In this document: one piece after another, positions 28,605 to 43,306 of the stretch
Layout of the letters: every line of letters starts with the position of its first letter
How positions within the stretch are numbered: the stretch's first letter is position 1
Assembly: GCA_038065455.1 (NCBI GenBank)
Contig: JBBTQX010000002.1
Location: 1-64,000 of the forward strand
Origin: Patescibacteria group bacterium
GTDB lineage: Bacteria > Patescibacteriota > Minisyncoccia > UBA6257 > GWB1-50-10
Direction of reading: 5' to 3'
Length of the DNA stretch: 64,000 bases
Notes under the pieces: generated by a model
What the model was told of the DNA's origin: nothing
Seen by the model: only the letters and a program-made list of their open reading frames with translations
Databases searched by the model: none
Made by a program: the position numbers and the translations under genes

Positions 28605-29858
28605 TTAGCTTTTTATTTCTCTGATAAAATCTTGAACTTTTACCAATTTTGTTTCTTTACTGTTTCTTTTCTTTACTTCAATTTTATCCTGAACCATTGT
28701 CTTCTCGCTCACGACGACTCTCCACGGCAAGCCGATAAGGTCGGCATCGAAGAATTTTTCGCCGGCCGAAAGTCCGGCCCGATCGTCGAAAAGCGGCTCT
28801 ACACCCTCTTTCACGAGCTGATTATAAACTAGGGCGCCGAACTTTTGAAGCTCGGTGGTACTTTCGCCGATTTGGAGAAGATGGGCCGGAAACGGGGCGG
28901 CTTCTTCGGGCCATAATATCCCCTTTTCGTCGTGATGAACCTCGACAATCGCGCCCATCAACCTATCCACGCCGATGCCATAACAGCCCATCACGACGGG
29001 CAAAACTTCACCCTTCTTATTCTTGAAGGTCAGCCCGACGGGCTCCGAAAACTTGGTGCCCAGTTTGAAAATATTCCCCACCTCGATGCCTTTCACTTTT
29101 TCGAGCACGCCCGCTCCGCATTTTGGACAGCTTTCTTCCGCTTTCAACTCCGCGATTTCCTTGTTACGCGCGAAACCGCAAAGCCGGCAAAGCAGTATCT
29201 CATCCTCGCCCGCCTCGCTTTCCACCATGAATTCATGGGAAATATTCTTCGTAAAATCTCCGCCGGAAGCCTCCGTCACGTATGCCTTCAATCCGAGCCG
29301 GCTGAAAACCTTCAAGTAGGCTTTTCTGGCCTCATCGTAATATTCTTCGAGCGAAGTTTCGTTCTCGTGGAAGCTATAAAGGTCTTTCATTATGAATTGC
29401 CGCCCGCGGATGAGGCCGGATTTGGCGCGAGGCTCGTCGCGGAATTTCATCTGGATTTGGTAGACGGAAAGAGGCAAATCGGCGTAGGAACTAATGATGG
29501 GCTTCGCGAGCGGAGTCACGATTTCCTCATGCGTGGGACCGAGGCCGAATTCGTGGCCGGCGCGGTCTTTGAACTGGTACATTACCTTGGACATTCCCTC
29601 CCACCGGCCCGTCACGTCCCACGCCGATCGCGGATGGAGCGCGGGCATCAGTATCTCGCTCGCCCCGAGCGCGTTCATTTCTTCGCGGATGACATTCTGG
29701 ATTTTTTCGATTACCCGCCAGCCGAGCGGAAGAAATGAATAGGCGCCGGCCATCAATTTTTGGACAAAATTCGCCCGAATCAGGAATTGGGCGTTCGCGG
29801 ACGTTTCATCCTTGGGAAAATCTTTTTGGGTCTTGAAAAATAGATGCGATTGTCTCAC
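28605..29858 (-). CDS. proS: Proline--tRNA ligase (short, no INS editing domain)
   Basis: LGPTHEE, KFRDEPR, MKDLYSF, EVGNIFKLG, MGCYGIG. Confidence 0.96.
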   Translation of the reverse strand: MRQSHLFFKTQKDFPKDETSANAQFLIRANFVQKLMAGAYSFLPLGWRVIEKIQNVIREEMNALGASEILMPALHPRSAWDVTGRWEGMSKVMYQFKDRAGHEFGLGPTHEEIVTPLAKPIISSYADLPLSVYQIQMKFRDEPRAKSGLIRGRQFIMKDLYSFHENETSLEEYYDEARKAYLKVFSRLGLKAYVTEASGGDFTKNISHEFMVESEAGEDEILLCRLCGFARNKEIAELKAEESCPKCGAGVLEKVKGIEVGNIFKLGTKFSEPVGLTFKNKKGEVLPVVMGCYGIGVDRLMGAIVEVHHDEKGILWPEEAAPFPAHLLQIGESTTELQKFGALVYNQLVKEGVEPLFDDRAGLSAGEKFFDADLIGLPWRVVVSEKTMVQDKIEVKKRNSKETKLVKVQDFIREIKS

Positions 29859-29884
29859 ACAAAAATCTTACCAAGGAAAATGAA

Positions 29885-30853
29885 CTACTTCAACAGCGAG
29901 CCTTCAATGACGATTTCCAAAAGCTTCGGGAAGGAGATATTCAAAACTTTGGCGGCCTTTGGAAGCAGGCTGTTTTCGGTCATTCCCGGAATAGTATTGG
30001 TCTCGAGCATATAAAGCTTTCCTTTCGGGTCCAGGATAAAATCGCTTCGGGAAAAGCTCCGACAGCCCAATATCTTGTGGGCGAGAAGCGCCGTCCGCTT
30101 CACCATCTGCGTATGCGAATCCGGCAGATTAGCCGGTGTCATTTCCAAAGTCGCCGGATCGTATTTCGTCTTGTAATCGAAAAATTGGGCGCCGGCCGAC
30201 ACGATTTCGGTCGGCGGCAGGGCAAAAGCGGAACGGGGCATACCCGAATCCACGACGCCGCAAGTCAGCTCCCGGCCGGGAATGAATTCCTGAATAATGA
30301 TTTCTTTGGATTCCTTGAAAGAAAGCTCCAGCGCTTGTTTCAAATCCTTCGCGTCTTTCTCGATTCTCACGCCCAGGCTAGAACCGCTCGCATTGGGCTT
30401 TATCACCCAAGGCTTTCCAAAAAGCGAAATGATTTTTTTCGCGACGCCATCCCGATCCTTGAACCATTCGTGTTTCGATAAGTGGATGGTAGGCGGAACC
30501 GAAATTCCGGCGTCCCGGAAAAGGCGGAGCGAGAGCCATTTATTCATCCCGAGCGCGCTTGCCATCGCGTCCGAACCCGTATAGGGCATTCCCACGGAGT
30601 CCAGAATGGTCTGCACCGTGCCGTCCTCGCCGTAAGGGCCGTGCATCGCGATAAAAGCCAAATCGAAAAGCTTATTCAGTTCTTCGGGTTCCACGGGCCA
30701 CTCCCCGCTCCGGCTTATCGTGAATTCTTTGGCTTCATATTTTTCCGGGTCGAGATTCAAAACAATATTCTTGCCGGTCGCGAGAGACACATCGTGTTCC
30801 GGCGAAGGCCCTCCGGTTAATACGGCAATTTTCTTTTTATTGTGTTTAGTCAT
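29885..30853 (-). CDS. ddl: D-alanine--D-alanine ligase
   Basis: GGPSPEHDVS, HGPYGEDG, GSSLG, ETNTIPGMT. Confidence 0.96.
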   Translation of the reverse strand: MTKHNKKKIAVLTGGPSPEHDVSLATGKNIVLNLDPEKYEAKEFTISRSGEWPVEPEELNKLFDLAFIAMHGPYGEDGTVQTILDSVGMPYTGSDAMASALGMNKWLSLRLFRDAGISVPPTIHLSKHEWFKDRDGVAKKIISLFGKPWVIKPNASGSSLGVRIEKDAKDLKQALELSFKESKEIIIQEFIPGRELTCGVVDSGMPRSAFALPPTEIVSAGAQFFDYKTKYDPATLEMTPANLPDSHTQMVKRTALLAHKILGCRSFSRSDFILDPKGKLYMLETNTIPGMTENSLLPKAAKVLNISFPKLLEIVIEGSLLK

Positions 30854-30863
30854 GCCAGATAAT

Positions 30864-31889
30864 TTAAAAAAACCTTACAACATCCTTTACGGTAATAAAA
30901 ACCATAAGAAGGATCAATGCCGCGAAACCGGCGCCGTTCACCCATATCTGAAACTGCTTGGAGATGGGCCGGCGGATAATCTTCTCGATTATGAGAAAGA
31001 GGAAGCGCCCGCCGTCCAAAGCCGGAAAAGGCAGAAGATTCAAAACGGCCAGATTAACCGAGATGAGCGCCAAAAGCTGGATAAGATAAATGAAACCCAA
31101 AGAGGTGGCTTGGGCCGCGATAAAGACGATTCCCACTGGCCCCGCGACATTCTCTATGGCCCGGGGCGCGGTGAAGAGCTGACCGAAAAACATAACCAGT
31201 CCCTCAATGACCATTTTGGATGTCTCCCAAACTCCGGTAAAGCCCGAAACAAAAGCGCTTGAAATCGGCTGGGCGACAAAACCCGTCTCCGTGATATTCA
31301 CGCCGAGCGGACCCTGGCCTTCCGGCGGATTCAGCCGAGGCGCGATCTCGATATTCATTTTTTTGCTTCCCCGCTCGATTCCGAGAATAATATTGGGAGC
31401 GCCTTTTACGGCTCCGGTAAAGTCCTGAGAAGATATCGGGTCGGCGAAATTCATATCCCCCGCTTTCAAATTCGATACGACATCGCCTGCCAAAAGCCTC
31501 GCGGCCGAGGCCGGCGAACCCGGCGCCACTTCCAATATCATCAGATGTTGCGGCGCTCCAACCGCGAAAACAACGCTCAAGAGAAGCCAGCCAAGCAGAA
31601 GATTCATAAAAATCCCCGCTAGGATTACCGGGATCTTTTTTCGGGCCGGTTCGTCATTAAAACCACCCTTCTCCGAACCATCCTCATTTTGAAGCCGCAC
31701 GAAACCGCCGAAAGGCAGGAGATTCACGCTATAATCGGTTTCCCCAAATCTTTTTTTGAACAATCTCGGCGGAAAACCGATGCCGAATTCCTCCACCTTC
31801 ATTCCCAGAAGCTTCGCGGTGATGAAATGGCCGAACTCGTGGATGAGAATAAGCGCCGCCAGGCCCAATATCACGACAACAAAGGTCAT
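30864..31889 (-). CDS. rseP: RseP-like site-2 metalloprotease with PDZ domain
   Basis: HEFGH, NLLPFPALDGG. Confidence 0.93.
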   Translation of the reverse strand: MTFVVVILGLAALILIHEFGHFITAKLLGMKVEEFGIGFPPRLFKKRFGETDYSVNLLPFGGFVRLQNEDGSEKGGFNDEPARKKIPVILAGIFMNLLLGWLLLSVVFAVGAPQHLMILEVAPGSPASAARLLAGDVVSNLKAGDMNFADPISSQDFTGAVKGAPNIILGIERGSKKMNIEIAPRLNPPEGQGPLGVNITETGFVAQPISSAFVSGFTGVWETSKMVIEGLVMFFGQLFTAPRAIENVAGPVGIVFIAAQATSLGFIYLIQLLALISVNLAVLNLLPFPALDGGRFLFLIIEKIIRRPISKQFQIWVNGAGFAALILLMVFITVKDVVRFF

Positions 31890-32437
31890 TCGTTTATTTC
31901 TCTGATTTTATTTTCCAGGACTTTTTCCATATTTCCGTTCAACTCGTCCACTTCCTTCTGGATTTGTTCTTTCGTTTTAAACTTCCCATCCTCATCCAAT
32001 TCCTTTCCGTCAAAAGCAGTTTGAACTTTTCTGTTGGTTTCATCTCGCAAATGGCGCATTTGGATTTTATGTTCTTCCATCACTTTCTTGATGTGCTTTA
32101 CGAGTTCATCTCGCCGTTCCTGACTCAATTCAGGCAAAAATATCCGGATAATCTGGCCGTCGATATTAGCCGAGAGATTCAAAGTGGAAAGCTCGATTGC
32201 CTTGGCGACCGAAGGCACGGCGGCCTTGTCCCAAACCTGGATGACGATTTCCCGCGGCGGCTGAACGCTGATTGTTCCCAATTGCTTTATGGACGTCATT
32301 TGGTCGTAATAATTGGTCTTCAAATCTTCGACAATCGCCGCGTTCGGCCGCGTCGTGCGGACGGCGGCTAGAGCTTTTTTCAAGCTATCCAGAATCATTT
32401 GTCCCTTCGCCTCCAATTCGTTTAAAATTATTTCCAT
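31886..32437 (-). CDS. frr: Ribosome recycling factor
   Basis: VRTTR, IQVWDK, PELSQERRDELVK. Confidence 0.93.
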   Translation of the reverse strand: MEIILNELEAKGQMILDSLKKALAAVRTTRPNAAIVEDLKTNYYDQMTSIKQLGTISVQPPREIVIQVWDKAAVPSVAKAIELSTLNLSANIDGQIIRIFLPELSQERRDELVKHIKKVMEEHKIQMRHLRDETNRKVQTAFDGKELDEDGKFKTKEQIQKEVDELNGNMEKVLENKIREINE

Positions 32438-32438
32438 T

Positions 32439-33203
32439 TTATTTGTTTATTCTTTCTTCAATAGCCTTTTTCTGGAGATTCATATTCAAATTATACCTTT
32501 TTACCGACATTTCTCTATCCAGAAGCCAAACCAGTATTTCCGCGTTCTTCTTCAGATTCGCCCGGCGCAATTCCAATATCCTGTTTTCTAGTATTTTTTC
32601 GAGATTTTCTTCTTCCTTATCCGGCAAATCATCCAGAATTTCGAAAGCCAAACCCGGCCGGCCGAAAGACTGCCGGGTGATTTGTTCGGCTTTCTCTCCC
32701 CCGACTCCCCGCTCGTCTTTCAATATCCGGACGATTTCCGATTTCGGGAAGCGCGGAAAATAAATCTTAGTCAGGCGTGAAAGAAGCGGCGGCAAAAGAA
32801 CATTCTCGTCGTGGGAAACGAATACAAGCAGTCCGTGGGTCGGCGGCTCTTCCACAACCTTCAAAAGCGCTCCCTGGGCCTCCGGCGTCAAATCCTCGGC
32901 ATTATCTATGATCGCGAGCCGATAGTGCGATTTAAGAGGTTTCTGCCAAAGAAATCTTTTTGCCTCCAGAACCTTATCTATTCCCAAACTGTTTTTTTCC
33001 TCGTCCTTCACGACGAAGAGCGCGTCCAAAAGCGTCTCGGGCGTTATTTCGAATTTGCCCGTCTCGAGCGCATAAGCCAGAAGCTTCGCGAAAGAATATT
33101 TGCCGATTCCCCGGTCGCCGTAGAAAAGATACGGTTGGCCGAGCTTATCTTCCTTTATGAGTTTTTCGAAAGACTTTATTTTTTCGTCGTATCCGAAAAG
33201 CAT
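32439..33203 (-). CDS. holB: DNA polymerase III delta' subunit-like
   Basis: YLFYGDRGIGK, IIDNAEDLTPEAQGALLKVVEEP, LSR. Confidence 0.85.
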   Translation of the reverse strand: MLFGYDEKIKSFEKLIKEDKLGQPYLFYGDRGIGKYSFAKLLAYALETGKFEITPETLLDALFVVKDEEKNSLGIDKVLEAKRFLWQKPLKSHYRLAIIDNAEDLTPEAQGALLKVVEEPPTHGLLVFVSHDENVLLPPLLSRLTKIYFPRFPKSEIVRILKDERGVGGEKAEQITRQSFGRPGLAFEILDDLPDKEEENLEKILENRILELRRANLKKNAEILVWLLDREMSVKRYNLNMNLQKKAIEERINK

Positions 33204-33207
33204 ACGG

Positions 33208-34215
33208 TTAACGTTTATTCAAAAGAGTTCTCTTATAAACGTCCAAGTGATTCAAAATTATGGCCGTCCCCTTCGCCACGCAAAGAATCGGGTCTTCGGC
33301 CGTGTAGGCCGACACGCCGAGCGAGCGCTTGATGAATTCTTCAAGGTCGCGTACCTGCGAACTCCCGCCCGAAAGAATGATGCCTTTTTCCATTATATCG
33401 GCGGCGAGCTCCGGCGGCGTCACATTGAAAACAGACTGCACCGCGCCCATTATTTCCACCAAATGCGGATTGATAGCTTCGGCGATTTCGTTGGAATTGA
33501 TAATGAGGTCTTTAGGCAAACCGGAGGCCAAGTCGCGCCCGCGGATTTTCATTTCTGTTTTTGTTCGATTTGGCAGCGCCGTGCCTATCGTTATTTTTAT
33601 CGTCTCCGCCGTCGTTTCGCCGATCGCGAGACCATATTTTTTCTTGATGTATTCGGAGATAGATTGGTCGAAGCGATTGCCGGCGACGCGCAAACTTGCC
33701 CAAGTCACGATGCCGCCAAGGGAAATTACGGCCACCTCGGTCGTTCCTCCGCCGATATTCACCACCATATTACCTTCGGCCGAATGGATGGGAATGCCAG
33801 CACCCAAGGCCGCCAAAATCGGCTCTTTGACCAGATAAACCTCCTTCGCGCCTGATTCCTTAGCCGCGTTCATCACGGCCCGGTATTCGGTGGAGGTAAT
33901 GCCGGCCGGCACCGAAATGACCACCTCCGGCCGAAAAATGTTGAAAGCGCCTATGCTTTTCGATATAAAATAGCGAAGCATCGCTTGGGTGATATAATAA
34001 TCGGCGATGACGCCGTCCTTCAAAGGCTTATAGGTGACGATATTATCGGGCGTGCGCCCCACCATTTCTTTCGCCTCCGCCCCCACGGCCAAGACTCCGT
34101 TGTCGGGCTTCCGCAAAGCGACGACCGTCGGTTCGTTGATGACGATGCCCCGGTTCGGCAAAAAGACCAAAGTATTGGTCGTCCCCAAATCGATTCCTAT
34201 TTTTCGGATAAACAT
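33208..34215 (-). CDS. mreB: MreB/Mbl (paralog 2)
   Basis: GIDLGTTN, PLKDGVIAD, IGGGTTEVAVISLGG, TPPELAAD. Confidence 0.95.
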   Translation of the reverse strand: MFIRKIGIDLGTTNTLVFLPNRGIVINEPTVVALRKPDNGVLAVGAEAKEMVGRTPDNIVTYKPLKDGVIADYYITQAMLRYFISKSIGAFNIFRPEVVISVPAGITSTEYRAVMNAAKESGAKEVYLVKEPILAALGAGIPIHSAEGNMVVNIGGGTTEVAVISLGGIVTWASLRVAGNRFDQSISEYIKKKYGLAIGETTAETIKITIGTALPNRTKTEMKIRGRDLASGLPKDLIINSNEIAEAINPHLVEIMGAVQSVFNVTPPELAADIMEKGIILSGGSSQVRDLEEFIKRSLGVSAYTAEDPILCVAKGTAIILNHLDVYKRTLLNKR

Positions 34216-34225
34216 GATTAAAAAA

Positions 34226-35527
34226 TTAATTTGAAACTCTTTTGATGTCGGCTCCGAGGAAGCTCAAGCGCTCCACGATCTTTTCGTACCCCCGGTCTAT
34301 TTCATGCACGCCCAATATTTCCGATTCCCCTTCCGCAATCAAAGCCGCGAGCACATGGGCGATGCCCGCCCGCAAGTCCGGCACCGTGAGCGTCGCGCTA
34401 TGAAGTTTCGTCGGCCCCTTCACGATTGCGCTATGCGGACAATTCTTTTCTTTGAAACGGCAAGGAACTTCGCTCAAACATTCATTTACCACTCTAATGT
34501 CCGCGCCCATTAAATTCAAGTCTTCAATATAGCCGAAGCGAGCTTCATAGACGGTTTCGTGGATGATTGATTCGCCCTGCGCCTGCGTGAGCATAGTCAG
34601 AAACGGCTGTTGCCAGTCCGTCATAAAACCCGGATGGGTGTCGGTTTCCAACTTGATGCCGGTCAATGGCCGCGCCCGGAAGAAAAGAATGCCCTCACTC
34701 GTCACTTCATACTCTCCGCCGATTCGCCTTAAATTATTCAAAAATGTGATGAGGTCGCCCTGGTCGGCTCCCTTCACCAATATCTTCCCGTTCGTCGCGA
34801 CCGCAAGGCACGCGAAAGAAACGGCCTCATTCCTGTCCGGCAATACCTTATGCCGCGCGCCATACAGTTTTGGAACGCCGTAAATCGTGACGGTGCGGTT
34901 TGTGCCAATCTCGATGATTGCCCCCATTTTCTGGAGCATCTTTATCAAGTCCGTGATTTCCGGCTCGACGGCAGAATTGATAATGGTTGTCTTCCCCTCG
35001 GCCAAAACCGAAGCGAATATTATCTGCTCCGTCGCACCGACGCTGGGATATTTTAAGGCAATAGTCGCTCCCTTGAGCCTTCCCGTGATTCTCGCCTTAT
35101 ATGAATCGGGGCTAGCTTCTATCTCTGCTCCAAGCGCCTTCAGGGATTCCAAATGCATATCCACGGGCCGCGGGCCGATCTTATCTCCGCCCACGATCGG
35201 CACCTCCGCCTCCCCCGCCCGATTCAGAAGCGGCCCCAAAGCCAGAATCGATACTCGATTTTTTTGATTCAGGGAAATCGCCTTGGTGTTTTTTATCTCC
35301 GGCGTCCTTATGACCAGATTGGAATCGATGGATTTTATTTCGCTTCCCAGCGCCACGCAAAGCTCTTTTACGATTTCCGCATCCCCGATTCGGGGGAAAT
35401 TCTCGAACACGCACTCCTCATCGGTTAAAAGCGAGACGATGAGCATTTTCGTCGCCGCGTTCTTCGCCCCGGCCAGTTTTATTTCGCCCGTGAGCGGCCG
35501 CCCACCCCGGATTATGAATTTATCCAC
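34226..35527 (-). CDS. murA: UDP-N-acetylglucosamine 1-carboxyvinyltransferase
   Basis: GAKNAA, GGDKIGPRPVD (Asp at the catalytic Cys position, the fosfomycin-insensitive type), SVGATE, PGFMTD, DLRAG, IDRGYE. Confidence 0.96.
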   Translation of the reverse strand: MDKFIIRGGRPLTGEIKLAGAKNAATKMLIVSLLTDEECVFENFPRIGDAEIVKELCVALGSEIKSIDSNLVIRTPEIKNTKAISLNQKNRVSILALGPLLNRAGEAEVPIVGGDKIGPRPVDMHLESLKALGAEIEASPDSYKARITGRLKGATIALKYPSVGATEQIIFASVLAEGKTTIINSAVEPEITDLIKMLQKMGAIIEIGTNRTVTIYGVPKLYGARHKVLPDRNEAVSFACLAVATNGKILVKGADQGDLITFLNNLRRIGGEYEVTSEGILFFRARPLTGIKLETDTHPGFMTDWQQPFLTMLTQAQGESIIHETVYEARFGYIEDLNLMGADIRVVNECLSEVPCRFKEKNCPHSAIVKGPTKLHSATLTVPDLRAGIAHVLAALIAEGESEILGVHEIDRGYEKIVERLSFLGADIKRVSN

Positions 35528-35535
35528 GCATCCAT

Positions 35536-35609
35536 TATACCCGGTATTACAATGTTTAGAAAAGTTGCTGGTTCATTTTTTTTTGATTAGGTTTGTAATA
35601 CCGGGTATA
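35536..35609. repeat. 17-bp perfect inverted repeat spanning two divergent promoters
   Basis: TATACCCGGTATTACAA (35536-35552) / TTGTAATACCGGGTATA (35593-35609). Confidence 0.8.
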
Positions 35610-35620
35610 TTATTAAAGGT

Positions 35621-35908
35621 ATGTATCCCGTTAGAGACATTTCTATGTATTACAATTACGTTTTAAGAAGCAAAAAAGATGGGAAATGGTATACTGGCTA
35701 CACGAATGATCTACGGAAGCGCTTTAGCCAGCACAATAGCGATAAATTCCCTCAATGGACCAAAAATCGGGGTCCTTTTGAAATCATATACTATGAAGCC
35801 TGCAAAGATCTGCAAGATGCAAGGTCGAGGGAATATTATCTAAAAACAGGAATGGGTAAACGTTATATCAAAAATAGGCTAAAGCGCTTCCTGTCTCTAA
35901 CGGGATGA
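35621..35908 (+). CDS. Small GIY-YIG nuclease family protein encoded inside a family A element
   Basis: YYNYVLRS...WYTGYTNDLRKRFSQHN...YYEA...ARSREYYLK; its first and last codons are formed by the terminal repeats. Confidence 0.92.
   Translation: MYPVRDISMYYNYVLRSKKDGKWYTGYTNDLRKRFSQHNSDKFPQWTKNRGPFEIIYYEACKDLQDARSREYYLKTGMGKRYIKNRLKRFLSLTG
35625..35906 (+). mobile_element. Family A element, nuclease-encoding copy
   Basis: 15-bp perfect TIR ATCCCGTTAGAGACA / TGTCTCTAACGGGAT; same termini at three other loci. Confidence 0.85.
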
Positions 35909-37149
35909 ACCTCAAAACCCGGCGAACTCTCTTTTACTTCTTCATTCTCATATTCGTCCTTGCGGGCGCTTATCTCCTCGCAACCGCCCAGGGGCTGGTC
36001 CTGGATTTCAAAAATCTGAAGATTACCGGCACTGGCGGGCTCTTTTTGAAGTACGTTCCGCCCGACGCGACTGTGGAATTGAACGGCAAAAAAACCGATG
36101 TTTCGCCCGGCCTCGTTTCGAGCGGAATTTTCATCTCTAAATTAATTCCCGACGAATACCGGGTAAAGATTTCAAAACCGGGCTTCTCTGCCTGGGAAAA
36201 GACACTCGCGGTTAAGAACGGCGCGGTGGCTTCGGCGAGCCAAATCAGGCTCTGGCCCGAAGTCTGGGATTTGAATGTCATTACGACGAGCTCCGTCCGG
36301 GATTTCCGGCTCACGGGTGCGGGTCTAGTACTCCAAGGAAAAAACGGAACTCTTCGGCTGGACGGATTTTCTTTGGGAAACAGGAGTGTCGCTTTGAGCG
36401 GGCCGGACTCGTCCCTCATCGTTACGACCGATGAAAAAGAAAATTTTGTAACCAATCTCGAAGATTTGTCACCCGCGCTCGATATCGTCCGGCTCTTTAA
36501 TTCGCTGAAACAAAGCCAGTTGAATCTTCCCGGCACGATCATTCCTAAAAATTACTTCCTTCATCCCTTTAACGCCAAAATTCTCATCACGACCGGAAAC
36601 GCGCTTTACTCGCTCGATATCAAAAGATTGAGACTTGAAAAACTGACCGATATGGCAGGAATTAAGAAGGCGGAATTAAGGGGAAACGAAATGTTTCTTT
36701 TCGATATGAAAGACAATATAACGACATTCAATCTTTTTCTCCAAACTGCCAGAATTTATGAATCGACCTCCACCGAAGCCATCGGAATAGGAGCGAGCCT
36801 GGCCGGCTTGCCGGCCCCCGACGGGAAAAAGATTTTTTTGCTTTCAAAAAACGACACGCTTTCTTTGAAAGTTTTGGAAAATTATTATGCCGACGGCGAA
36901 GTGAGAAAGGGCGATATGTGGCCCGTTTTTTCCGACCGGGGCAAAATAACGGATTTCAAATGGTTGAATGGCAATTCTAATTATGCGCTGGTACTTGCCG
37001 AAAAAAACTTGTTCATCGTTGAAACCGACCGGCGCACCCCGCAGAATATCCGACTCATATCCCAAGGAGTGGAAAAATTCGCGACGGAGGGAAACGATCT
37101 CTATATCCTCAAAACCGACGGCACGCTTCTGAGGGCGAGTTTGAAGTAG
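35905..37149 (+). CDS. PEGA-domain membrane-anchored protein
   Basis: N-terminal TM; TGGLFLKYVPPDATVELNG...LIPDEYRVKISKPGFSAWEK. Confidence 0.8.
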   Translation: MNLKTRRTLFYFFILIFVLAGAYLLATAQGLVLDFKNLKITGTGGLFLKYVPPDATVELNGKKTDVSPGLVSSGIFISKLIPDEYRVKISKPGFSAWEKTLAVKNGAVASASQIRLWPEVWDLNVITTSSVRDFRLTGAGLVLQGKNGTLRLDGFSLGNRSVALSGPDSSLIVTTDEKENFVTNLEDLSPALDIVRLFNSLKQSQLNLPGTIIPKNYFLHPFNAKILITTGNALYSLDIKRLRLEKLTDMAGIKKAELRGNEMFLFDMKDNITTFNLFLQTARIYESTSTEAIGIGASLAGLPAPDGKKIFLLSKNDTLSLKVLENYYADGEVRKGDMWPVFSDRGKITDFKWLNGNSNYALVLAEKNLFIVETDRRTPQNIRLISQGVEKFATEGNDLYILKTDGTLLRASLK

Positions 37150-37159
37150 AAGACGAATT

Positions 37160-37528
37160 TTAAAAAATATCAGAGACTCTAGTCAGTGCAAGCCGATTCA
37201 TGACTTCATCGTCATAGTTATCCATATGGACACAGATGCAAAGTAAGACGATAACGGCGCCTTTTACTGCGAACCACATTCGGGGATACTGATTGGGTCT
37301 TAAATTATCATTAGGAACAACGAGTTCTACTTTCCATAAGGTCCAGATATCATTCTGCGTTACCCTGTGTAATTTTGCCGGGGCTATTATTTGCTTCGGA
37401 TTCTCCGGATTGAATTGAAATTCGCACAACCTCTTGAATGAATCTAAACCGTCTTTAAGATGACGAAATCGCCGCTCAAGGGCGGCGATTTCTTTTTCTA
37501 TGCCGTCATGATACAGAAATTCAATCAT
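37160..37528 (-). CDS. Putative RelE/ParE-fold toxin
   Basis: 122 aa, ATGA-coupled behind a Panacea gene; EKEIAALERRFR...WKV..RMWF pattern. Confidence 0.6.
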   Translation of the reverse strand: MIEFLYHDGIEKEIAALERRFRHLKDGLDSFKRLCEFQFNPENPKQIIAPAKLHRVTQNDIWTLWKVELVVPNDNLRPNQYPRMWFAVKGAVIVLLCICVHMDNYDDEVMNRLALTRVSDIF

Positions 37529-38016
37529 AGGTCGCTGAAATCCGTACCGCGATAGAACGCGAGTTCATATGAAATATCCTCTCCCGGCTTCGTCCCAACA
37601 TATGGGGCCTCAGCATGGGAAAGTTCGCCAAGCTGTTTTCCATTCAATTGGCCGTATTTTATGGCAACGCGATCAAGCATTCTTCTTTCTTCGATATCTA
37701 ATATTAATTCATCCGGTTCCGCCAAAGAACTGTAAACCTCAATTGGATTATATCCATTTCCCAATTCGACGGCTTTGGCAAGAAGTATTTTTTTCTCGGA
37801 CATTTCCGATATAATTTTCTCAAAAGAGACTGGTACTGGCCCCATAGGAAGGGCTTTATATGTATCCCCAGTTATAGGTTTCTGATTCTTTTCGAAGAAA
37901 TCAAAATCAGCAAAATAAAGGAGTTTTGCTAGTTTTTTCTTCCCTTGGATTTCACCTCCTAATTTCTTACAGAGATATAGTATAACTTGCTGATATTTCT
38001 TCTTTTGGAGGGTCAT
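37525..38016 (-). CDS. Panacea (DUF4065/SocA/GepA-like) antitoxin
   Basis: KLAKLLYFADF...PITGDTYKALPMGPVP...LSHAEAPY. Confidence 0.88.
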   Translation of the reverse strand: MTLQKKKYQQVILYLCKKLGGEIQGKKKLAKLLYFADFDFFEKNQKPITGDTYKALPMGPVPVSFEKIISEMSEKKILLAKAVELGNGYNPIEVYSSLAEPDELILDIEERRMLDRVAIKYGQLNGKQLGELSHAEAPYVGTKPGEDISYELAFYRGTDFSDL

Positions 38017-38133
38017 TTTACTTAACAGTATTATACCACAATAAAACTCAAAACAACAAGAAAATGGCTATCTGAATAGTAAAATGAAGACTTAACTTAA
38101 ATGTTTCAATGCTCCTTCTCAATGCAACAGTGG

Positions 38134-38160
38134 AAAAAAAATCCCCGAAGGGATTTTTTT
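38134..38160 (-). terminator. Intrinsic terminator after rpsI
   Basis: A-run, ATCCC-CGAA-GGGAT stem-loop, T-run. Confidence 0.75.
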
Positions 38161-38611
38161 AACGCTTGCGCCACTGTTGCGGCCGTCTCGCTTTCCGCAG
38201 GCCGTATTTCTTGCGCTCCACCTTCCGGGGGTCGCGTTTCATAAAGCCGAGGGATTTCAATTTGGAACGCCAGGTGGGATTCAAAGCGACGAGGGCGCGA
38301 GACAAGCCGAGCCGGATGGCTTCTGCCTGGGAACTCAAGCCACCTCCTCCAACCAATGCCGTCGCGTGGTATTCCTTGAGCGAAAGCTCGCCGAAGGGAG
38401 CGAGGACGGTCTTCTGCAATTTCGCGGTCGGAAAATATTCGGAAAAGGGCAAATCATTCACGATAATCTCCGGAGTCTTGCTCGCCGCTTTGCGGCCGGA
38501 AAAAAGCCGGACGCGGGCGACCGCGGTCTTCCGGCGGCCGATAGCCTCGATATATTTATCCTTTTCCTTTTCAATTTTCTTCGCCGGATGGGCGGTTGTT
38601 TTCGAAGGCAT
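38159..38611 (-). CDS. rpsI: 30S ribosomal protein S9
   Basis: GRRKTAVARV, GGGLSSQAEAIR, RDPRKVERKKYG. Confidence 0.97.
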   Translation of the reverse strand: MPSKTTAHPAKKIEKEKDKYIEAIGRRKTAVARVRLFSGRKAASKTPEIIVNDLPFSEYFPTAKLQKTVLAPFGELSLKEYHATALVGGGGLSSQAEAIRLGLSRALVALNPTWRSKLKSLGFMKRDPRKVERKKYGLRKARRPQQWRKR

Positions 38612-38612
38612 T

Positions 38613-38954
38613 TTATTTTTCGATAATGAGATTTTTAAGCCGTTTCGCATTCAGGCGGTTTTTGGGCAACATCAGGCGCACGGCGTGCCGGAGAACCCAG
38701 GCCGGATTCTTTTTGAAAACATCGGCGAATTTCCGCTCCTTGAGATGTCCCAGGGGGCCGGTGTGCTTATAATAAATCTTCTGATTGGTCTTCTTGCCGG
38801 AAACGGCGATTTGCGAAGCGTTCGTGACCAGTACCCGGTCGGTATTCATAAGCCGCGGATTATAATTCGGGCTCTTCTTACCTTGGAGCAAAAAAGCTAT
38901 CTCCGAGGAGAGCCGGCCTAATTTTTTGTTTTTCGCGTCGATTTGATGGTCCAT
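38613..38954 (-). CDS. rplM: 50S ribosomal protein L13
   Basis: IDA..LGRLSS...LQGK, YYKHTG, MLPKNRL. Confidence 0.96.
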   Translation of the reverse strand: MDHQIDAKNKKLGRLSSEIAFLLQGKKSPNYNPRLMNTDRVLVTNASQIAVSGKKTNQKIYYKHTGPLGHLKERKFADVFKKNPAWVLRHAVRLMLPKNRLNAKRLKNLIIEK

Positions 38955-38955
38955 A

Positions 38956-39309
38956 TTATTTTACGAATTCGATGACGGCCATTTTGGAGCCGTCGTGCTT
39001 CCTCGGAGTAACCGTTTTTACCACCCGGGTGTATCCCCCTTTCCGCTCTTTATAGCGCGGGGCGATTTCGTGGTAAACCTTGTAGGCTGCCGCTTTCGGC
39101 AATTTCTCCAAAAGCAGTTTCATTCCGGCCAGATTTTGCTGTTTGCCGTAGGTGATATAGCGCTCCACGATGCCCTTCAATTCCTTGGCGCGCGCCTCGG
39201 TCGTCGTAATCTTTTCGTGGCTCACAAGGTTATTGGCCAGAATCCTCAAAAAAGACCTGCGAGGGCCTTTTTTCAAACCGAATTTTCTCCCCTTGTGCAT
39301 GTGCCGCAT
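38956..39309 (-). CDS. rplQ: 50S ribosomal protein L17
   Basis: MRH, ITTTEARAKE, GGYTRV. Confidence 0.97.
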   Translation of the reverse strand: MRHMHKGRKFGLKKGPRRSFLRILANNLVSHEKITTTEARAKELKGIVERYITYGKQQNLAGMKLLLEKLPKAAAYKVYHEIAPRYKERKGGYTRVVKTVTPRKHDGSKMAVIEFVK

Positions 39310-40056
39310 TTATTTTTCTTTCTTTTTCTTTTCGGGTTTGCCGGAAATCAATTCCGCCGGAACTACTTCGATGGCCAGAACTTTGTCGAAATGGTCTTTC
39401 AAAATATTGCTCGCCTTGTGGAGCGCCTCCGAAGGGCTAATGGAGCCGTCGGTCTCTATTTCCAATTTCAAGCGGTTATAATCGGTGCGGTCGCCCACGC
39501 GCATATCTTCCGAGTGGAAGGATACCCGGACAACCGGGGAAAAGATGGCATCAAGCACGATCGTGCCGACCGAAAGCCTCTCCATCCGGCGGGATTCGCT
39601 CATCACGTAGCCCAAGCCCTTTTCGACGGTGATTTCCATATCCAAATCGGCGGACTTTTTCGAAAGAGTCGCGAGATGCAAATCCTTGTTGATTACCCGC
39701 ACGAGCGTGGAAGATTCGATATCCTCCGCCTTCACTTCCTTCTCGCCTTTCACGTGAAGTTTTAAAGTCTGCGGCTCATCGGCGGTAAAATGAAAGCGGA
39801 CTTTCTTCAGGTTCAACGTGAACTCCACGATATCCTCCACCATGCCGGGCAAAGTCGAAAATTCATGGTCTATATTCTTAATCTTAATCTGAGTAATAGC
39901 CGAACCCGGAAGCGAGGAAAGGAGCGCGCGCCGAAAAGCATTCCCCAAAGTGACGCCATAACCGGTAAAAAGACCTTCAATGTAAAAAACACCGATATTG
40001 TCCTTTTCGGAAATTTTCTTGACCTCGACCGCTTCGCTGATATGTGTATATTTCAT
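39310..40056 (-). CDS. rpoA: RNA polymerase alpha subunit (NTD only, 248 aa)
   Basis: GYGVTLGNAFRRALLSS, HEFSTLPG, GLGY, DAIFSPV, ETDGSISP. Confidence 0.96.
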   Translation of the reverse strand: MKYTHISEAVEVKKISEKDNIGVFYIEGLFTGYGVTLGNAFRRALLSSLPGSAITQIKIKNIDHEFSTLPGMVEDIVEFTLNLKKVRFHFTADEPQTLKLHVKGEKEVKAEDIESSTLVRVINKDLHLATLSKKSADLDMEITVEKGLGYVMSESRRMERLSVGTIVLDAIFSPVVRVSFHSEDMRVGDRTDYNRLKLEIETDGSISPSEALHKASNILKDHFDKVLAIEVVPAELISGKPEKKKKEK

Positions 40057-40074
40057 TTTTTTGTTTTATAAAAT

Positions 40075-40674
40075 TTAACGCGAATAGAATTGGCCGACCA
40101 CGTTTATATCGAAAGGTAGTTGCACTCCGGTAACGGGCGGTTTTGCCACGCACTCGCCTTTCAATTCCTCCGCTTTGAGCTTAAGCCACTCAGGCGGGGT
40201 GTATTGCTTCAACCGGAGTTGAATATCATCGAAAATCTTCGCCGAGCGGGATTCGGGCCGCACAGCAATAATGTCTTTAACCCTAACATAATAGGAAGGA
40301 ATTGTCACTTTTCGGCCATTCACGTGGATATGGCCGTGGGAGACGAGCTGGCGGGCGATTCTCGGAGACTTCGCGAATCCCAAAAGAAAAACCACGTGGT
40401 CGAGGCGGCTTTCGAGCTTGGTCATAATGCCGTCTTTGTCGGAATTCCGGAACATTCTCATCATCTGATGATTATTCAGCCCGTAAAGAATTTGGATTTT
40501 CTGTTTTTCCTGGAGCTGCTTTCCGAATTCGGAAACGGAGTGGCGCGCCTGGCCGTGCTGGCCCGGGCGGTAAGGATGGCGTACCATCGCGCACTTCGGC
40601 GAATTACAGCGGTCTCCCTTGAGGAAGAGTTTGATGCCCAGCGATCTTTCTTTTTTCTCTTTGATTCTTTTCAT
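40075..40674 (-). CDS. rpsD: 30S ribosomal protein S4
   Basis: KLFLKGDRC, PGQHG, QLQEKQK, LESRLD, ARQLVSHGHI; start set at the ATG abutting the element. Confidence 0.96.
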   Translation of the reverse strand: MKRIKEKKERSLGIKLFLKGDRCNSPKCAMVRHPYRPGQHGQARHSVSEFGKQLQEKQKIQILYGLNNHQMMRMFRNSDKDGIMTKLESRLDHVVFLLGFAKSPRIARQLVSHGHIHVNGRKVTIPSYYVRVKDIIAVRPESRSAKIFDDIQLRLKQYTPPEWLKLKAEELKGECVAKPPVTGVQLPFDINVVGQFYSR

Positions 40675-40796
40675 CCCGTTTAGAGACAGGATACGCTTAA
40701 GAAGCATATCCGTGAAGCATTAGCCGATTCGACTTTATTGGATTCTATTGATTGTTTGATAATCATGTTATTCATAAGTTTGATGTCTCTAACGGG
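40675..40796 (-). mobile_element. Family A element (nuclease-less) at the rpsD start codon
   Basis: CCCGTTTAGAGAC...GTCTCTAACGGG (one extra T); ATGAA on both sides. Confidence 0.85.
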
Positions 40797-40809
40797 ATTC
40801 ATATTTTTA

Positions 40810-40952
40810 CCAGGCAGTGAAAATGCGATTGCAAATCGTGATTGAATCGACGATTCTCGCTATTTCCAATGACCTTTTATTTATATTCATATGTTTTGAT
40901 ATTATGATGGTTTTCGATTTGAATTCAATCTAATCGCATTTCTACTGCCTGG
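40810..40952. mobile_element. Family B element at the rpsK stop codon
   Basis: CCAGGCAGTGAAAATGCGATT...AATCGCATTTCTACTGCCTGG; TAA on both sides (- strand). Confidence 0.78.
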
Positions 40953-41402
40953 TTAAACCCTTCTGGTCTTGGCCGGACGCGGTCCGTTGTGCGGAATCGG
41001 CGTCACATCCTTGATGGACAGTATATTCAAGCCCTTGCCGGCGAAAGAACGGATGGCGGAATCGCGGCCGCTACCCACGCCGCGCACGAAAATCTCCACG
41101 GTATTCGGGCCGGTCTTTTCCAATTTCTGGGCAATGGCTTCGGCGACTTTGGAAGACGCGAAAGGAGTCGCCTTCTTGGGTCCGGAAAATCCCAAAGAGC
41201 CAGCGGACATCCATGTAATCACGGCACCCTTATCGTCGGTTACGGTAATAATGGTGTTATTATAGGTGGCTTGAATATAGATACGGCCGTTTTCCCAGTG
41301 CTGTTTGGATGTGGACGAAGATTGCTTAGCCGGCGCCTTTTCGGCCGTCCCCGCTTCCTTCACCGCTTCGTCTTTGGTTTTTATGACTTTTTTCTTTCCC
41401 AT
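40953..41402 (-). CDS. rpsK: 30S ribosomal protein S11
   Basis: ATYNNTIIT, KKATPFAS, GVGSGRDSAIR, DVTPIPHNG. Confidence 0.98.
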   Translation of the reverse strand: MGKKKVIKTKDEAVKEAGTAEKAPAKQSSSTSKQHWENGRIYIQATYNNTIITVTDDKGAVITWMSAGSLGFSGPKKATPFASSKVAEAIAQKLEKTGPNTVEIFVRGVGSGRDSAIRSFAGKGLNILSIKDVTPIPHNGPRPAKTRRV

Positions 41403-41415
41403 TTGCCGATTATAT

Positions 41416-41563
41416 ATGAATTTTCGAGTCTACAGACGATGAAAATTCATCCATAGAATCGAGCACCCCGCCATCATCCCCGACTTGGAGCAGGATATTT
41501 TCTTTCATTATGATTTTCGTTATTTTATTGTTTTTCATATTTTTAGTGTAATGATGGCGGGGT
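41416..41563 (-). repeat. Family C element between rpsM and rpsK with a 42-codon mini-ORF (41410-41538)
   Basis: ACCCCGCCATCAT/ATGATGGCGGGGT 13-bp IR plus the motif shared with the groES leader. Confidence 0.8.
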
Positions 41564-41573
41564 AAGTGTTCCC

Positions 41574-41957
41574 TTATTTCAAATCGACTTTCCGCTTGCC
41601 ACTACCGGCCGTCTTCCTGACGTTGCCGCGCACCGTCCGGGAATTCGTTTTCGTCCGCTGGCCGCGCACCGGAAGCTTTCGCAAATGACGCACGCCGCGA
41701 TAGGCTTTAATATCTTTCAAGCGAGCGATGTTCTGTTTTATCACTTGCCGCAACTCTCCCTCAATCTTGTAGTTCTTCTCTATCATTGATTGGATGCGGT
41801 TCACCTCGTCCGGCGCCAAATCCTTCGCTCGTTTTTGGAGGTCGATTTTCGCGCCGACCAAAACCTTGGCGGCCAAGGTCGGGCCAATGCCGTAGATGTA
41901 GCCCAAGGCCACGTAGATTTTTTTGTTATCGGGTATGTTTACTCCGGCGATTCTCAT
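41574..41957 (-). CDS. rpsM: 30S ribosomal protein S13
   Basis: MRIAGVNIP, YIYGIG, YRGVRH..LPVRGQRTKTNSRT. Confidence 0.98.
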   Translation of the reverse strand: MRIAGVNIPDNKKIYVALGYIYGIGPTLAAKVLVGAKIDLQKRAKDLAPDEVNRIQSMIEKNYKIEGELRQVIKQNIARLKDIKAYRGVRHLRKLPVRGQRTKTNSRTVRGNVRKTAGSGKRKVDLK

Positions 41958-41959
41958 AA

Positions 41960-42076
41960 TTATCCTTGTCTTTGTTTATGCCTCGGGTTCTTGGCACATA
42001 TGACGTAAACCCGCCCTTTTCGACGGACGGTCTTGCAAACGCTGCAGATTTTTTTTACCGATGCTCTGACTTTCAT
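41960..42076 (-). CDS. rpmJ: 50S ribosomal protein L36 (missing from ORF track, 38 aa)
   Basis: Hand translation [38 protein letters not shown]. Confidence 0.97.
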
Positions 42077-42196
42077 CCCGTTAGAGACAGGATACGCTTA
42101 AAAAGCGCATCCGTGATATGTCGCTTGGTTTGATTATTCCGACCTGTTGGTTATTCATATTGATACATTATTCAAAATTTGTTTGTCTCTAACGGG
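42077..42196 (-). mobile_element. Family A element (nuclease-less) at the rpmJ start codon
   Basis: 15-bp perfect TIR ATCCCGTTAGAGACA/TGTCTCTAACGGGAT; ATGAA on both sides. Confidence 0.87.
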
Positions 42197-42208
42197 ATTC
42201 ATAAAACT

Positions 42209-42436
42209 TTACAATCTTCGCACGATTCGTCCCCGTTTGTCCAGGATGTTCGCCATCTCCACCATAACCCTGTCTCCGGGGATAACCCGGATGCGGTTGA
42301 TTTTAAGCTTGCCGGCGGGATGCGCTAAAATGTCTTTTTCTTCCCCGTTTTCAAGTTTGACCTTCACGCGGAAAAGCAAACCCGGCAGTGCCTCCACCGC
42401 TATTCCCTCAATCCTGACTAAAGGCGTATTTTCCAT
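42209..42436 (-). CDS. infA: Translation initiation factor IF-1
   Basis: EG...EALP...FRV...ILAH.AGK...RIRVIPGDRV.VE...RGRIVRR. Confidence 0.93.
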   Translation of the reverse strand: MENTPLVRIEGIAVEALPGLLFRVKVKLENGEEKDILAHPAGKLKINRIRVIPGDRVMVEMANILDKRGRIVRRL

Positions 42437-42451
42437 TAACAAACAGAGTGA

Positions 42452-42480
42452 ATTTTAGACAAATACAGATTTTTTGTCAA
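42452..42480 (-). promoter_or_regulatory. Promoter of the infA-rpmJ-alpha cluster
   Basis: TTGACA-N17-TAAAAT on the - strand. Confidence 0.7.
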
Positions 42481-42525
42481 TTTTTTAATCTATAAATCGT
42501 CTTTAATATCAGTTGTGGATAACTA

Positions 42526-42642
42526 TTGACGCTTATTCATGTAAGTCGTTATAATGATAATACAGAATAACTTCTGTCCTGCCCGTGGATATGGGTTAAC
42601 TTTCCGCAAGACCTGATTCTCTTGAGTCAGGTTTTTGCTTTT
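42526..42642 (+). ncRNA. Candidate small RNA antisense to the 3' end of the NYN gene (promoter, two hairpins, terminator)
   Basis: TTGACG-N18-TATAAT; ACAGAA/TTCTGT and GCCCGT/ATGGGT hairpins; GACCTGATTC/GAGTCAGGTT plus T-run; no ORF. Confidence 0.45.
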
Positions 42643-43306
42643 TAACCGCAATATACTTTTTTATGTCTTGAGCATTGATTTTATTATCAACTAGCTCTCC
42701 TAACGACGCATCAATATGCCCTCCTTTTATTAAAATTATCTTTTTCTTTTGTTTCTTTAAGAAACGGATAAGAGCGGCGAAATCGGCATCGGACGATAAT
42801 AGACAGAACGTATCATATGAATTGATGAGTCTTACGGAATCAACTGAAACCTCCACGTCAAAATTGCACTTCGGAATCAATATAAAATTCCCTCCCTTAT
42901 CAACATTTATCTTCCGCATTGTCTCGCTTTTTTCTTCGGAATCCAGATAATGCTTGATTTGCTGTATTGGTTTAGTGAAAACCCTAGACTTACCGAAAAT
43001 ATGTTCCGCGGCCCGTTTGAATCTTAAAGACCCTGGATTAACAGGGTCGTGTCCATAATAAAAACGATCATCGCTGGAAAACGCGCTCAAGAAATCTTTT
43101 AATTTTTGCAGACCAATCGTTAACAACTCATTATCTGCCATTTTCACTCCGCTCTCATCAAAATCATCTTCATCAAACCAATGATTGACGTTCGCAAAAT
43201 CAATGAATGAGATAATGTTCGGATACCTGTCCGGTAAGATATCAAGATTTTTTCTTATTTGATCTTTTTTAAGTTCTTCCAAATCCATTTTAATTTTCTC
43301 CTTCAA
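42596..43306 (-). CDS. NYN-domain (LabA/DUF88, PIN-like) protein
   Basis: FIDFANV, FYYG, KCNFDVE, LLSSDADFAAL; true start may be ATG ~43288. Confidence 0.85.
   Translation of the reverse strand: MKEKIKMDLEELKKDQIRKNLDILPDRYPNIISFIDFANVNHWFDEDDFDESGVKMADNELLTIGLQKLKDFLSAFSSDDRFYYGHDPVNPGSLRFKRAAEHIFGKSRVFTKPIQQIKHYLDSEEKSETMRKINVDKGGNFILIPKCNFDVEVSVDSVRLINSYDTFCLLSSDADFAALIRFLKKQKKKIILIKGGHIDASLGELVDNKINAQDIKKYIAVKKQKPDSRESGLAES

Follow-up and report, generated by a model that had tools for sequence, protein, structure and literature searches.

This analysis concerns a 64,000-nt stretch of DNA (hereafter the window), which is contig C2:1-64000 of a 654-kb, 10-contig genome from the candidate phyla radiation (CPR; the genome is labelled G000 and its congeners G001-G004), and a 280-bp element within it that carries a single nuclease gene. 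The element proper occupies 35626-35905 on the + strand and consists of a terminal T, a core that reads CCCG...CGGG (35627-35904), and a terminal A. A 95-codon GIY-YIG open reading frame (ORF) extends from 35621 to 35908 (+); its ATG is the original start codon of the host gene, and its TGA lies in the right-hand TGAA and overlaps the rebuilt host ATG. The outer inverted repeat, ATCCCGTTAGAGACA/TGTCTCTAACGGGAT, has its left arm at 35625-35639 (+) and its right arm at 35892-35906 (+), as located by a 15-nt arm scan and by complementarity in 77 nuclease elements. Directly abutting the right outer arm is the right arm of an inner stem (35877-35891, +), which pairs with a left arm at 35715-35729 (+), about codons 32-36 of the nuclease ORF. 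A 4-nt flank stands on either side: the left copy (35622-35625, +) is degenerate at this site (TGTA), and the right copy (35906-35909, +) is TGAA, which together with the last A of the element gives the host ATGAA. The host gene (35905-37149, +), whose ATG overlaps the nuclease TGA, encodes 414 amino acids. An earlier interpretation made from the letters of this stretch (the sequence-only reading) had described both the 95-codon ORF within its inverted repeat and the ATGA overlap, and both descriptions stand; it had also named the downstream gene PEGA, and this gene is present, but its product matches PEGA at 20.1 bits, under the Pfam cut-off of 20.8.

The same outer repeat bounds three copies of ~120 bp in the window, all on the - strand: a 121-bp copy on the start codon of a gene like that for penicillin-binding protein 2 (PBP2/mrdA; 26269-26389), a 124-bp copy on the rpsD start codon (40674-40797), and a 122-bp copy on the rpmJ start codon (42076-42197). 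These hosts, named likewise by the sequence-only reading, were borne out by the arm pairs and by Pfam (PBP transpeptidase, 6.8e-57; ribosomal S4, 5.2e-17; L36, 4.5e-22). The arm ATCCCGTTAGAGACA (15 nt, up to three mismatches) matched the window seven times against 1.21 expected, and 0 of 100 shuffles reached seven. The matches are at 26268-26282/26376-26390, 35625-35639/35892-35906, 40784-40798, and 42075-42089/42184-42198; the second arm of the rpsD copy (40675-40688) contains an extra T.

Copies of the element in the source genome

A paired-arm scan of G000 found 19 long copies, namely 17 short ones (109-139 bp) and two with the nuclease gene, in addition to three copies of ~70 bp whose interior is rich in GC and two mini hairpins of 30-40 bp, so that at least 24 repeat pairs are present. 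The second nuclease-bearing copy (G000:C8:28387-28664) differs from the first at one of 278 nt and has unrelated flanks. As the sequence-only reading had stated for the window, the copies are in sense orientation at start codons: all 19 long copies have the same end towards the host, with the host ATG directly after the core. The ORFs behind them are 38-1000 aa long and belong to 19 different genes, which, named from their N-termini, look like housekeeping genes (SMC, rpoC, recR, ssb, rpsR, tRNA synthetases). For scale, a crude count gave 8191 TGAA sites in G000, 764 of them outside ORFs of at least 100 aa, and at most 173 ORFs that start with ATGAA. Orientation follows the gene and not the replication arm, because the + strand copy at 35627 sits between the - strand copies at 26270 and 40675; a replication-strand cause was therefore ruled out.

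The short copies were said to share the 3' sequence of the nuclease gene. This holds for the last ~30 nt (27/30 identical) and also for the first ~19 nt, but the interiors do not align, and an origin of the short copies by internal deletion of the nuclease gene was rejected on that ground. The ~30 nt in common are the right arm of the inner stem plus the right outer arm. Peptide similarity between the short copies and the nuclease is weak (a match with E 0.18, and the 17-residue C-terminal match that the sequence-only reading gave for the rpmJ copy) and offers only hints.

The nuclease gene is bound to the same termini across distant lineages

The product of the 95-codon ORF matches the Pfam GIY-YIG family (PF01541) with an E-value of 5.5e-16 and 59.1 bits (cut-off 22.6) over residues 9-76. 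It is a single-domain protein of 95 aa, and the sole other Pfam match is a weak one to T5orf172 over the same stretch. The motifs Y..Y, YTG, R, H-N, YYE, and RE are at least 90% conserved in a 41-sequence alignment and invariant in alignment A1; we take the conserved Tyr, Arg, His/Asn, and Glu positions to have catalytic roles. The nearest solved structure by sequence is the UPF0213 protein BH0048 (E 3.3e-12), and in the plasmid set B. subtilis yazA is the closest gene that has a name (41%, E 9e-9). Its relatives by sequence are thus the UPF0213/YazA proteins, and there is a resemblance to the Ssn nucleases, which act on single-stranded DNA (ssDNA). The Ssn proteins, as presented in the main text of Chenal et al., 2025 (PMC11893778), are 94-aa single-domain GIY-YIG enzymes; they attach to a hairpin repeat, and their cut in the ssDNA falls upstream of this repeat.

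A scan with one genome per species returned 177 relatives of the nuclease, and the analyses below concern the best 80 of them (61-77% identity). These 80 are spread over many lineages of the CPR, and a few are from bins that bear the label of another phylum. In 76 of the 80, an inverted repeat of at least 9 nt spans the ORF, so the nuclease is found within such termini in distant lineages of the CPR, where the sequence-only reading had proposed to look; a stricter pattern, the core pair, was present in 72/80 and is the basis of the 72-element counts given later. The closest relatives of the window copy (78% and 77%) belong to other families, while the congeners have 73, 69, and 66%, and across lineages the identity of the element exceeds that of host proteins. 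The pattern is one of horizontal spread. These data support the view that the nuclease gene is bound to the same termini across distant lineages.

Nuclease elements that are 65-73% identical to the window copy occur at loci L046, L069, L070, L083, L085, and L099, on contigs of bins labelled Desulfobacteraceae, Desulfacyla, Omnitrophota, Endomicrobia, Bdellovibrionales, and Planctomycetota. Either transfer out of the CPR or a binning error would place them there. A GIY-YIG protein is among the genes predicted to have been donated by Patescibacteria, according to PMC12455944. Viral contigs held only three distant relatives of the nuclease (34-40% identity), and a phage vector is not indicated by them.

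We also surveyed an even sample of 201 genomes of the class for exact core pairs 20-300 nt apart. Such pairs were present in 104/201 genomes and 89/159 genera, with up to 57 per genome (nested arrays inflate some of these counts), and a reversed-pattern control gave 0 in every genome. The short subfamily of the window was found only within the genus, in G000-G003 and not in G004, and in none of 36 other genera sampled.

The same 9-nt cores also enclose other cargos. tRNA genes lie between them at L014 (G002:C44:1014-1133), G194:C1:2774-2879, and G063:C1:82882-82984; ARAGORN called the first a tRNA-Val(tac), and the G194 and G063 tRNAs were judged by eye. GC-rich double hairpins of ~68-72 nt lie between them at G000:C4:18656-18721, C4:39414-39483, and C8:43685-43756. 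This cargo is conserved in distant genomes (for example G047, G152, G202, and G211) and has flank repeats of the TGAA/TCAA type, and some of its copies lie away from gene starts.

Covariation of the outer arms and of an inner stem

Across the 77 nuclease elements, positions 0-12 of the outer arms are complementary in 97-100%, position 13 in only 34%, and every variable position (0, 6, 7, 10, and 12) is compensated on the opposite arm. The terminal inverted repeat is 13-14 bp long. A second, inner stem is formed by the 15 nt beside the right arm, which pair with codons ~32-36 of the nuclease ORF: the mean was 13.8 of 15 paired positions versus 7.5 in a reversed control (76 elements). Among 60 distinct arm pairs, positions 1-12 of the inner stem pair in 54-60, with two-sided compensatory changes at positions 5, 8, 9, and 11, largely at synonymous sites. 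In the short copies the right inner arm is retained, and its partner is a left arm close by (GGATGCGCTT...AAGCGCATCC), again with compensated variants. Predicted DNA folds of the elements gave z-scores of -4.0 to -5.4.

We compared these structures with known families. Rfam returned no match on the elements at gathering thresholds, and none at E <= 1 over 26000-43000, so a known ribozyme or RNA family is unsupported. Likeness to integron attC sites was also set aside: GTTAGAG agrees with the attC core, GTTRRRY, at only 6/7 positions, and the arrangement differs.

A 4-nt duplication fits the flanks of the element

The flanks of the copies in G000 covary. Most are ATGAA/ATGAA, and ATGAG/ATGAG, ATGAT/ATGAT, and ATGGA/ATGGA also occur; copies away from start codons have GTGAAT...ATGAAC, ATCAAT...ATCAAC, and TTAAAC...GTAAAT. 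The model that fits all flanks best is (T/C)CCCG...CGGG(A/G) between 4-nt direct repeats, usually TGAA. Flanks such as GTGAAT...ATGAAC, TTAAAC...GTAAAT, and ATGAAC...GTGAAA are compatible only with this model and not with a 5-nt one; hence a 4-nt duplication, mostly TGAA, plus a terminal T...A pair replaces the 5-bp ATGAA duplication put forward in the sequence-only reading. The last base of the element and the duplicated TG together make the host ATG, or GTG where the terminal pair is C..G (L028, L029, and L064).

A 4-nt direct repeat was found in 55/72 nuclease elements of other genomes: TGAA in 39, TGAT in seven, TGAG in two, TGAC in one, and others in six, with 49/55 beginning TGA. Nuclease copies elsewhere stand at gene starts in 54/72 cases (followed by an ORF of at least 60 aa, or one that runs off the locus), and their hosts include topA and pyrG. 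The remaining 18/72 are not at gene starts; most of these have a C..G terminal pair and flanks like GTTCAC...GTAAAT. Position at a start codon, as originally proposed, describes all 19 long copies of G000 and most copies elsewhere, but not these 18, and what looks like start-codon targeting may therefore be a preference for TGAA combined with survival or retention at starts.

Reading frames of nuclease-bearing and short copies

In the standard register, the host's own ATG, which lies 6 nt before the core, serves as the start of the nuclease ORF, and the TGA of the right flank as its stop. The element itself has no stop codon, and copies flanked by GTAAA end in TAA. Of 50 standard-register elements, 36 have ATG as the first codon, and in 41 the frame stays open from -6 through to the TGA.

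The short copies have a different arrangement, with a right-arm stop codon (TAA) 4 nt before the host ATG. An ATG-started ORF of at least 20 codons ends at this TAA in 26/30 short copies, often from an ATGA overlap with the first frame, and the frame holds seven stops in 750 codons, while the two remaining sense frames hold 32 and 78. Such a layout agrees with translational coupling between the upstream frame and the host gene, although the coupling itself is inferred. A leaderless promoter before the upstream ATG was considered and dropped: a loose -10 was seen in 27/73 copies and a motif like Shine-Dalgarno in five, which is uninformative in AT-rich DNA.

Empty sites and near-identical copies point to recent movement

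Assembled contigs from public runs were compared with the window for joints that skip a copy. Contigs of four public runs join 42071 to 42198 at rpmJ, with five ambiguous letters; the joint skips 126 nt, the length of the 122-nt element plus 4 nt, and one contig has ~97% identical flanks. Since the joint also stands in DNA runs, it represents an empty allele and not splicing. The rpsD copy is absent together with a neighbouring repeat in a ~93% identical relative (joint 40674->40939). Among the joints listed (15 of 30), none spans the nuclease copy. The site of the nuclease copy is empty in 4/4 congeners, each of which has a single uninterrupted start; in G004 (83% protein identity) the promoter region leads straight into ATGGAACTC at this site. 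Empty alleles in relatives, which the sequence-only reading had suggested as a check, are thus found at both rpmJ and the nuclease site.

Conversely, of 17 congener loci examined, 15 have an orthologue in G000, and three of these are filled and 12 are empty in G000. The polA start has a short copy in G001 (L011), a nuclease copy in G002 (L022), and none in G000, where the gene starts ATGAGA. Within G000, two short copies at different genes are identical at 121/121 nt, and a third is 95% identical. Identical copies at unrelated genes of one genome cannot have recombination between strains as their source. Collectively, these results support a mobile family bounded by terminal inverted repeats, with short copies that look non-autonomous.

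Other palindromic or variable stretches lie close to the copies in the window. A small palindromic element, CCCGGTATTACAA...TTGTAATACCGGG, with TATA on both sides, occupies 35540-35605, immediately upstream of the nuclease copy; G000 and G001 have it, G002-G004 lack it, and the -35 of the sole promoter-like site at this locus falls within it. That site (TTGATT-17-TATATT, 35583-35611) is weak, and with 1.6 such sites expected by chance we did not count it as evidence of a promoter. Downstream of the nuclease copy, one contig of run X9 has 23 letters in place of 1004 nt of the window (37145-38150), a stretch that includes a 122-aa ORF (37160-37528, -). A second palindromic family, ACCAGGCAGTGAAAATGCGATT...AATCGCATTTCTACTGCCTGGT, is found at 40806-40955, directly upstream of the rpsD copy, and is skipped in the contigs of relatives; its arms also bracket a frameshifted GIY-YIG paralogue (G000:C2:77687-77928) and recur upstream of topA. 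Finally, 171 nt at 41402-41574, upstream of the next ribosomal gene start, have their own inverted repeat (CACCCCGCCATCAT...ATGATGGCGGGGT), and contigs of the ~93% identical relative have four letters instead.

Which enzyme moves the repeats?

The sole ORF of the nuclease-bearing copy is the GIY-YIG gene, with no DDE transposase within. It had been remarked that the window holds no standard transposase. This is correct for the window, but the genome encodes candidates elsewhere: transposase profiles matched three rve and two Y1_Tnp genes in G000, all outside the window, with 0 matches to PF01609 and no TnpB-type match. The two Y1 (HUH) transposase-like genes (235-236 aa; G000:C3:12877-13119 and G000:C10:7617-7847) are each flanked by their own, different palindromes, which resemble repetitive extragenic palindromic (REP) sequences.

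We compared the presence of each enzyme with repeat number across the 201 genomes of the class. Of these, 31 have the cognate nuclease (E <= 1e-25). At least one repeat pair was found in 29/31 genomes with the nuclease versus 75/170 without, and at least five pairs in 20/31 versus 33/170 (odds ratio 7.5); overall, the presence of the nuclease predicts repeat copy number with an odds ratio of 7.5-18. The co-occurrence of repeat and nuclease that the sequence-only reading had asked to see is thus found, and the arms covary in 77 elements. By contrast, the Y1 family, present in 125/201 genomes, does not predict repeat number: at least five pairs occur in 36/125 genomes with Y1 versus 17/76 without (odds ratio 1.4, p 0.33), and the odds ratio is 1.06 at ten or more pairs. 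Among genomes with at least ten pairs, six have the nuclease without Y1, and five have neither. Each GIY-YIG paralogue that we examined has its own inverted repeat.

On this evidence, the window probably contains a member of an active family of very small transposon-like DNA elements, whose autonomous form is 280 bp long and carries one gene for a 95-residue GIY-YIG protein. That the nuclease drives the movement is the inferred part of this reading. Whether the family further amounts to a new class of prokaryotic transposon, one with a GIY-YIG enzyme as its sole protein, which at 280 bp would be the smallest autonomous mobile element, borrows its start and stop codons, rebuilds the host ATG, and has spread through the CPR, is in our judgement an evenly balanced question.

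Several observations weigh against the nuclease as the mover. GIY-YIG nucleases hydrolyse DNA, and since they are not known to join strands, some additional activity is required for insertion. Because the sampled genomes are related, the Fisher tests make the link between nuclease and repeats look stronger than it is. Half of the high-copy genomes (15 of the 30 with at least ten pairs) have no cognate nuclease at E <= 1e-25; five of them were examined, and four have only paralogues on other repeats and one a degraded cognate copy. Likewise, G003 has six short copies and no intact cognate gene. Copies must therefore persist, or move, without the nuclease. The other cargos that share the 9-nt cores, which are tRNA genes, GC-rich hairpins, and mini hairpins of 30-45 nt, count on this side as well. 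The upstream frame is less regular than the 26/30 count suggests, as 13/30 short copies read from the upstream ATG to the right-arm stop, 11 stop early, and six lack an upstream start. The mismatches of the inner stem (GT+TG 21, AC+CA 17) do not separate DNA from RNA pairing. Lastly, unlike the repeats described with Ssn in the main text of PMC11893778, those of G000 do not bring the SRM motif with them: it had one match in G000, where five shuffles gave one to four, and no match lay closer than 500 bp to either nuclease copy.

An alternative that draws on several of these points holds that the nuclease is not the transposase of the repeats, even though these move or expand. The enzyme would instead be an Ssn-like, possibly domesticated, repeat-associated protein that restricts incoming ssDNA in transformation or cuts empty alleles in a homing-like drive, and the repeats would spread by slippage, by recombination after transformation, or by another enzyme. 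Neisseria SsnA acts on transforming ssDNA, and the authors of that study favour domestication (PMC11893778). Besides the 15 high-copy genomes without the cognate gene and the other cargos that share the cores, conserved housekeeping hosts would aid spread by homologous recombination. Against this alternative, a single genome has identical or nearly identical copies at genes unrelated to each other; the ORF takes up exactly the whole element, with target codons completing it in most copies (41/50 standard-register elements are intact); and the two stems are all that the short copies retain, as expected of ends that act in cis. The sequence-only reading had itself allowed that the nuclease might be one of many unrelated cargos: other cargos do share the cores, yet the nuclease is repeat-spanned in 76/80 relatives. 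We regard this alternative as unlikely.

We think it improbable that the copies are host regulatory RNA modules, in which the outer stem would hide the start codon until translation of the upstream frame freed it, with the stems perhaps as processing sites. Their distribution would then reflect functional selection and not selfish spread. The strict sense orientation and start-codon position, the open frame that ends 4 nt before the host ATG in 26/30 short copies, the strong predicted folds (z -4.0 to -5.4), and the tRNA genes between the same arms are all in keeping with such a role. They have to be set against presence and absence that vary at orthologous genes among close strains and congeners, the 18/72 nuclease copies off gene starts, the higher identity of the element than of host proteins across lineages, the lack of Rfam matches even at permissive thresholds, and G-U-type mismatches that are not in excess over A-C-type ones.

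Slightly less probable still is a passenger role for the GIY-YIG gene with another transposase (HUH Y1, similar to those of IS200 or of REP-associated tyrosine transposases (RAYT), or rve DDE) acting in trans, since although G000 has two Y1_Tnp and three rve matches, Y1 is widespread in the class, and Y1 enzymes are known to act on hairpin repeats, the Y1 genes of G000 carry other palindromes, Y1 does not predict repeat number, six genomes with at least ten pairs have the nuclease without Y1 and five have neither, and IS200/IS605 elements are not known to have a terminal inverted repeat or a duplication.

A possible route of insertion

If the nuclease moves the element, we envisage that it would recognise the folded ends as ssDNA hairpins, as Ssn recognises its repeat, and cut there. 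Insertion would take place at T(G/A)AA, most often TGAA, and host repair or ligation would complete it and yield the 4-nt duplication. In the inserted element, a host A and the left TG supply the nuclease ATG, and the right TGA its stop codon, while the last A of the element and the right TG rebuild the host start, with stop and start overlapping as ATGA. The short ~120-bp copies, reduced to an outer stem, an adjacent inner stem, and a frame that ends 4 nt before the host ATG, were probably moved in trans, and translation of the upstream frame may bring ribosomes to the host start. Several causes probably contribute jointly to the start-codon position. ATGAA is common at starts; the nuclease would need a borrowed start and stop; a rebuilt start would be harmless; and essential genes would tolerate only precise loss, which would favour retention.

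Should the nuclease prove to be the mover, GIY-YIG would join DDE, HUH, serine, tyrosine, and Cas1 as a basis of bacterial transposition, and the size floor for autonomous elements would fall to about 280 bp; the element may be the smallest self-contained transposon-like element known. Ssn-type nucleases and their unexplained hairpin repeats would gain a concrete origin as mobile elements. The element would also be a natural case of translation passed from the reading frame of a parasite to an essential host gene, and an enzyme of 95 residues able to read folded DNA ends might find use as a tool. In these ultra-small groundwater bacteria of the CPR the family is common, with exact repeat pairs in 104/201 of the class genomes sampled. 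Because its copies occupy start codons of genes for ribosomal proteins, polymerase, and secretion, CPR gene calling and start-site annotation are affected.

Comparison with known systems

The element resembles a classical insertion sequence (IS) or MITE (miniature inverted-repeat transposable element) through its terminal inverted repeats of 13-14 bp and its 4-nt duplication (55/72), of which empty sites hold one copy. Unlike classical DDE insertion sequences, the autonomous copy has no DDE transposase inside. Bacterial MITEs such as the Correia elements of Neisseria and the Rickettsia palindromic elements are 100-150 bp long, have inverted repeats and short duplications, and are tolerated near or inside genes, and the short copies are like them in size, inverted repeats, short duplications, and position at genes. 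No autonomous partner of the Correia elements is known, and other MITEs derive from DDE insertion sequences; no MITE is reported to rebuild a host start codon or to have a GIY-YIG partner.

GIY-YIG homing endonuclease genes (I-TevI, Seg, and the in-frame mobile ORFs of fungal mitochondria) are also selfish, and some are coupled to, or in frame with, their hosts. A homing enzyme has a separate DNA-binding domain and a single long recognition site, and its gene is copied into one allele through homologous repair. The present element differs from them in that it has no extra domain, carries inverted repeats and a 4-nt duplication, and occupies 19 unrelated host genes in G000.

REP/RAYT systems and IS200/IS605 elements are closer in several respects: they are small, their ends act as ssDNA hairpins, and they have a fixed orientation to a short asymmetric target. 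As here, the gene is flanked by its own repeats and many copies have no gene. Both systems use an HUH Y1 enzyme that forms a covalent intermediate, and neither is known to have an element-spanning terminal inverted repeat or a duplication. The repeats of the present element, unlike those of REP/RAYT, are not associated with Y1, and the Y1 genes of G000 carry other palindromes.

The closest parallel is the Ssn system. [quoted passage not shown] On that description, both systems have a single-domain GIY-YIG protein of ~94-95 aa, a gene bracketed by a multi-copy palindromic repeat, and a separate repeat for each paralogue; the foot of the hairpin is also similar (ATTCCC...GGGAAT in Ssn, ATCCC...GGGAT in the element). 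With 95 aa, the element protein falls within the size range for single-domain Ssn proteins (about 94-150 aa). By sequence it is nearest to UPF0213/YazA, and a place in the Ssn clade (cd10448) would be putative. Moreover, the element gene lies inside one long-range hairpin, as its loop, whereas the Ssn gene described there stands between two complete hairpins of 20-50 nt. The words 'duplication', 'MITE', and 'start codon' have 0 occurrences in the main text of PMC11893778, which also makes no mention that we found of empty sites, gene-start position, or short derivatives; its supplements may list CPR homologues. Our literature search found no paper that describes a GIY-YIG start-codon element. 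The sequence-only reading had presented a candidate new mobile system: the IS-like GIY-YIG layout was already described, in the main text of PMC11893778, and the coding and start-codon arrangement goes beyond it. The finding is real and not an artefact, it is of wider reach than the window alone could show, and it extends the 2025 Ssn system with comparative evidence of mobility and with an unusual coding arrangement.

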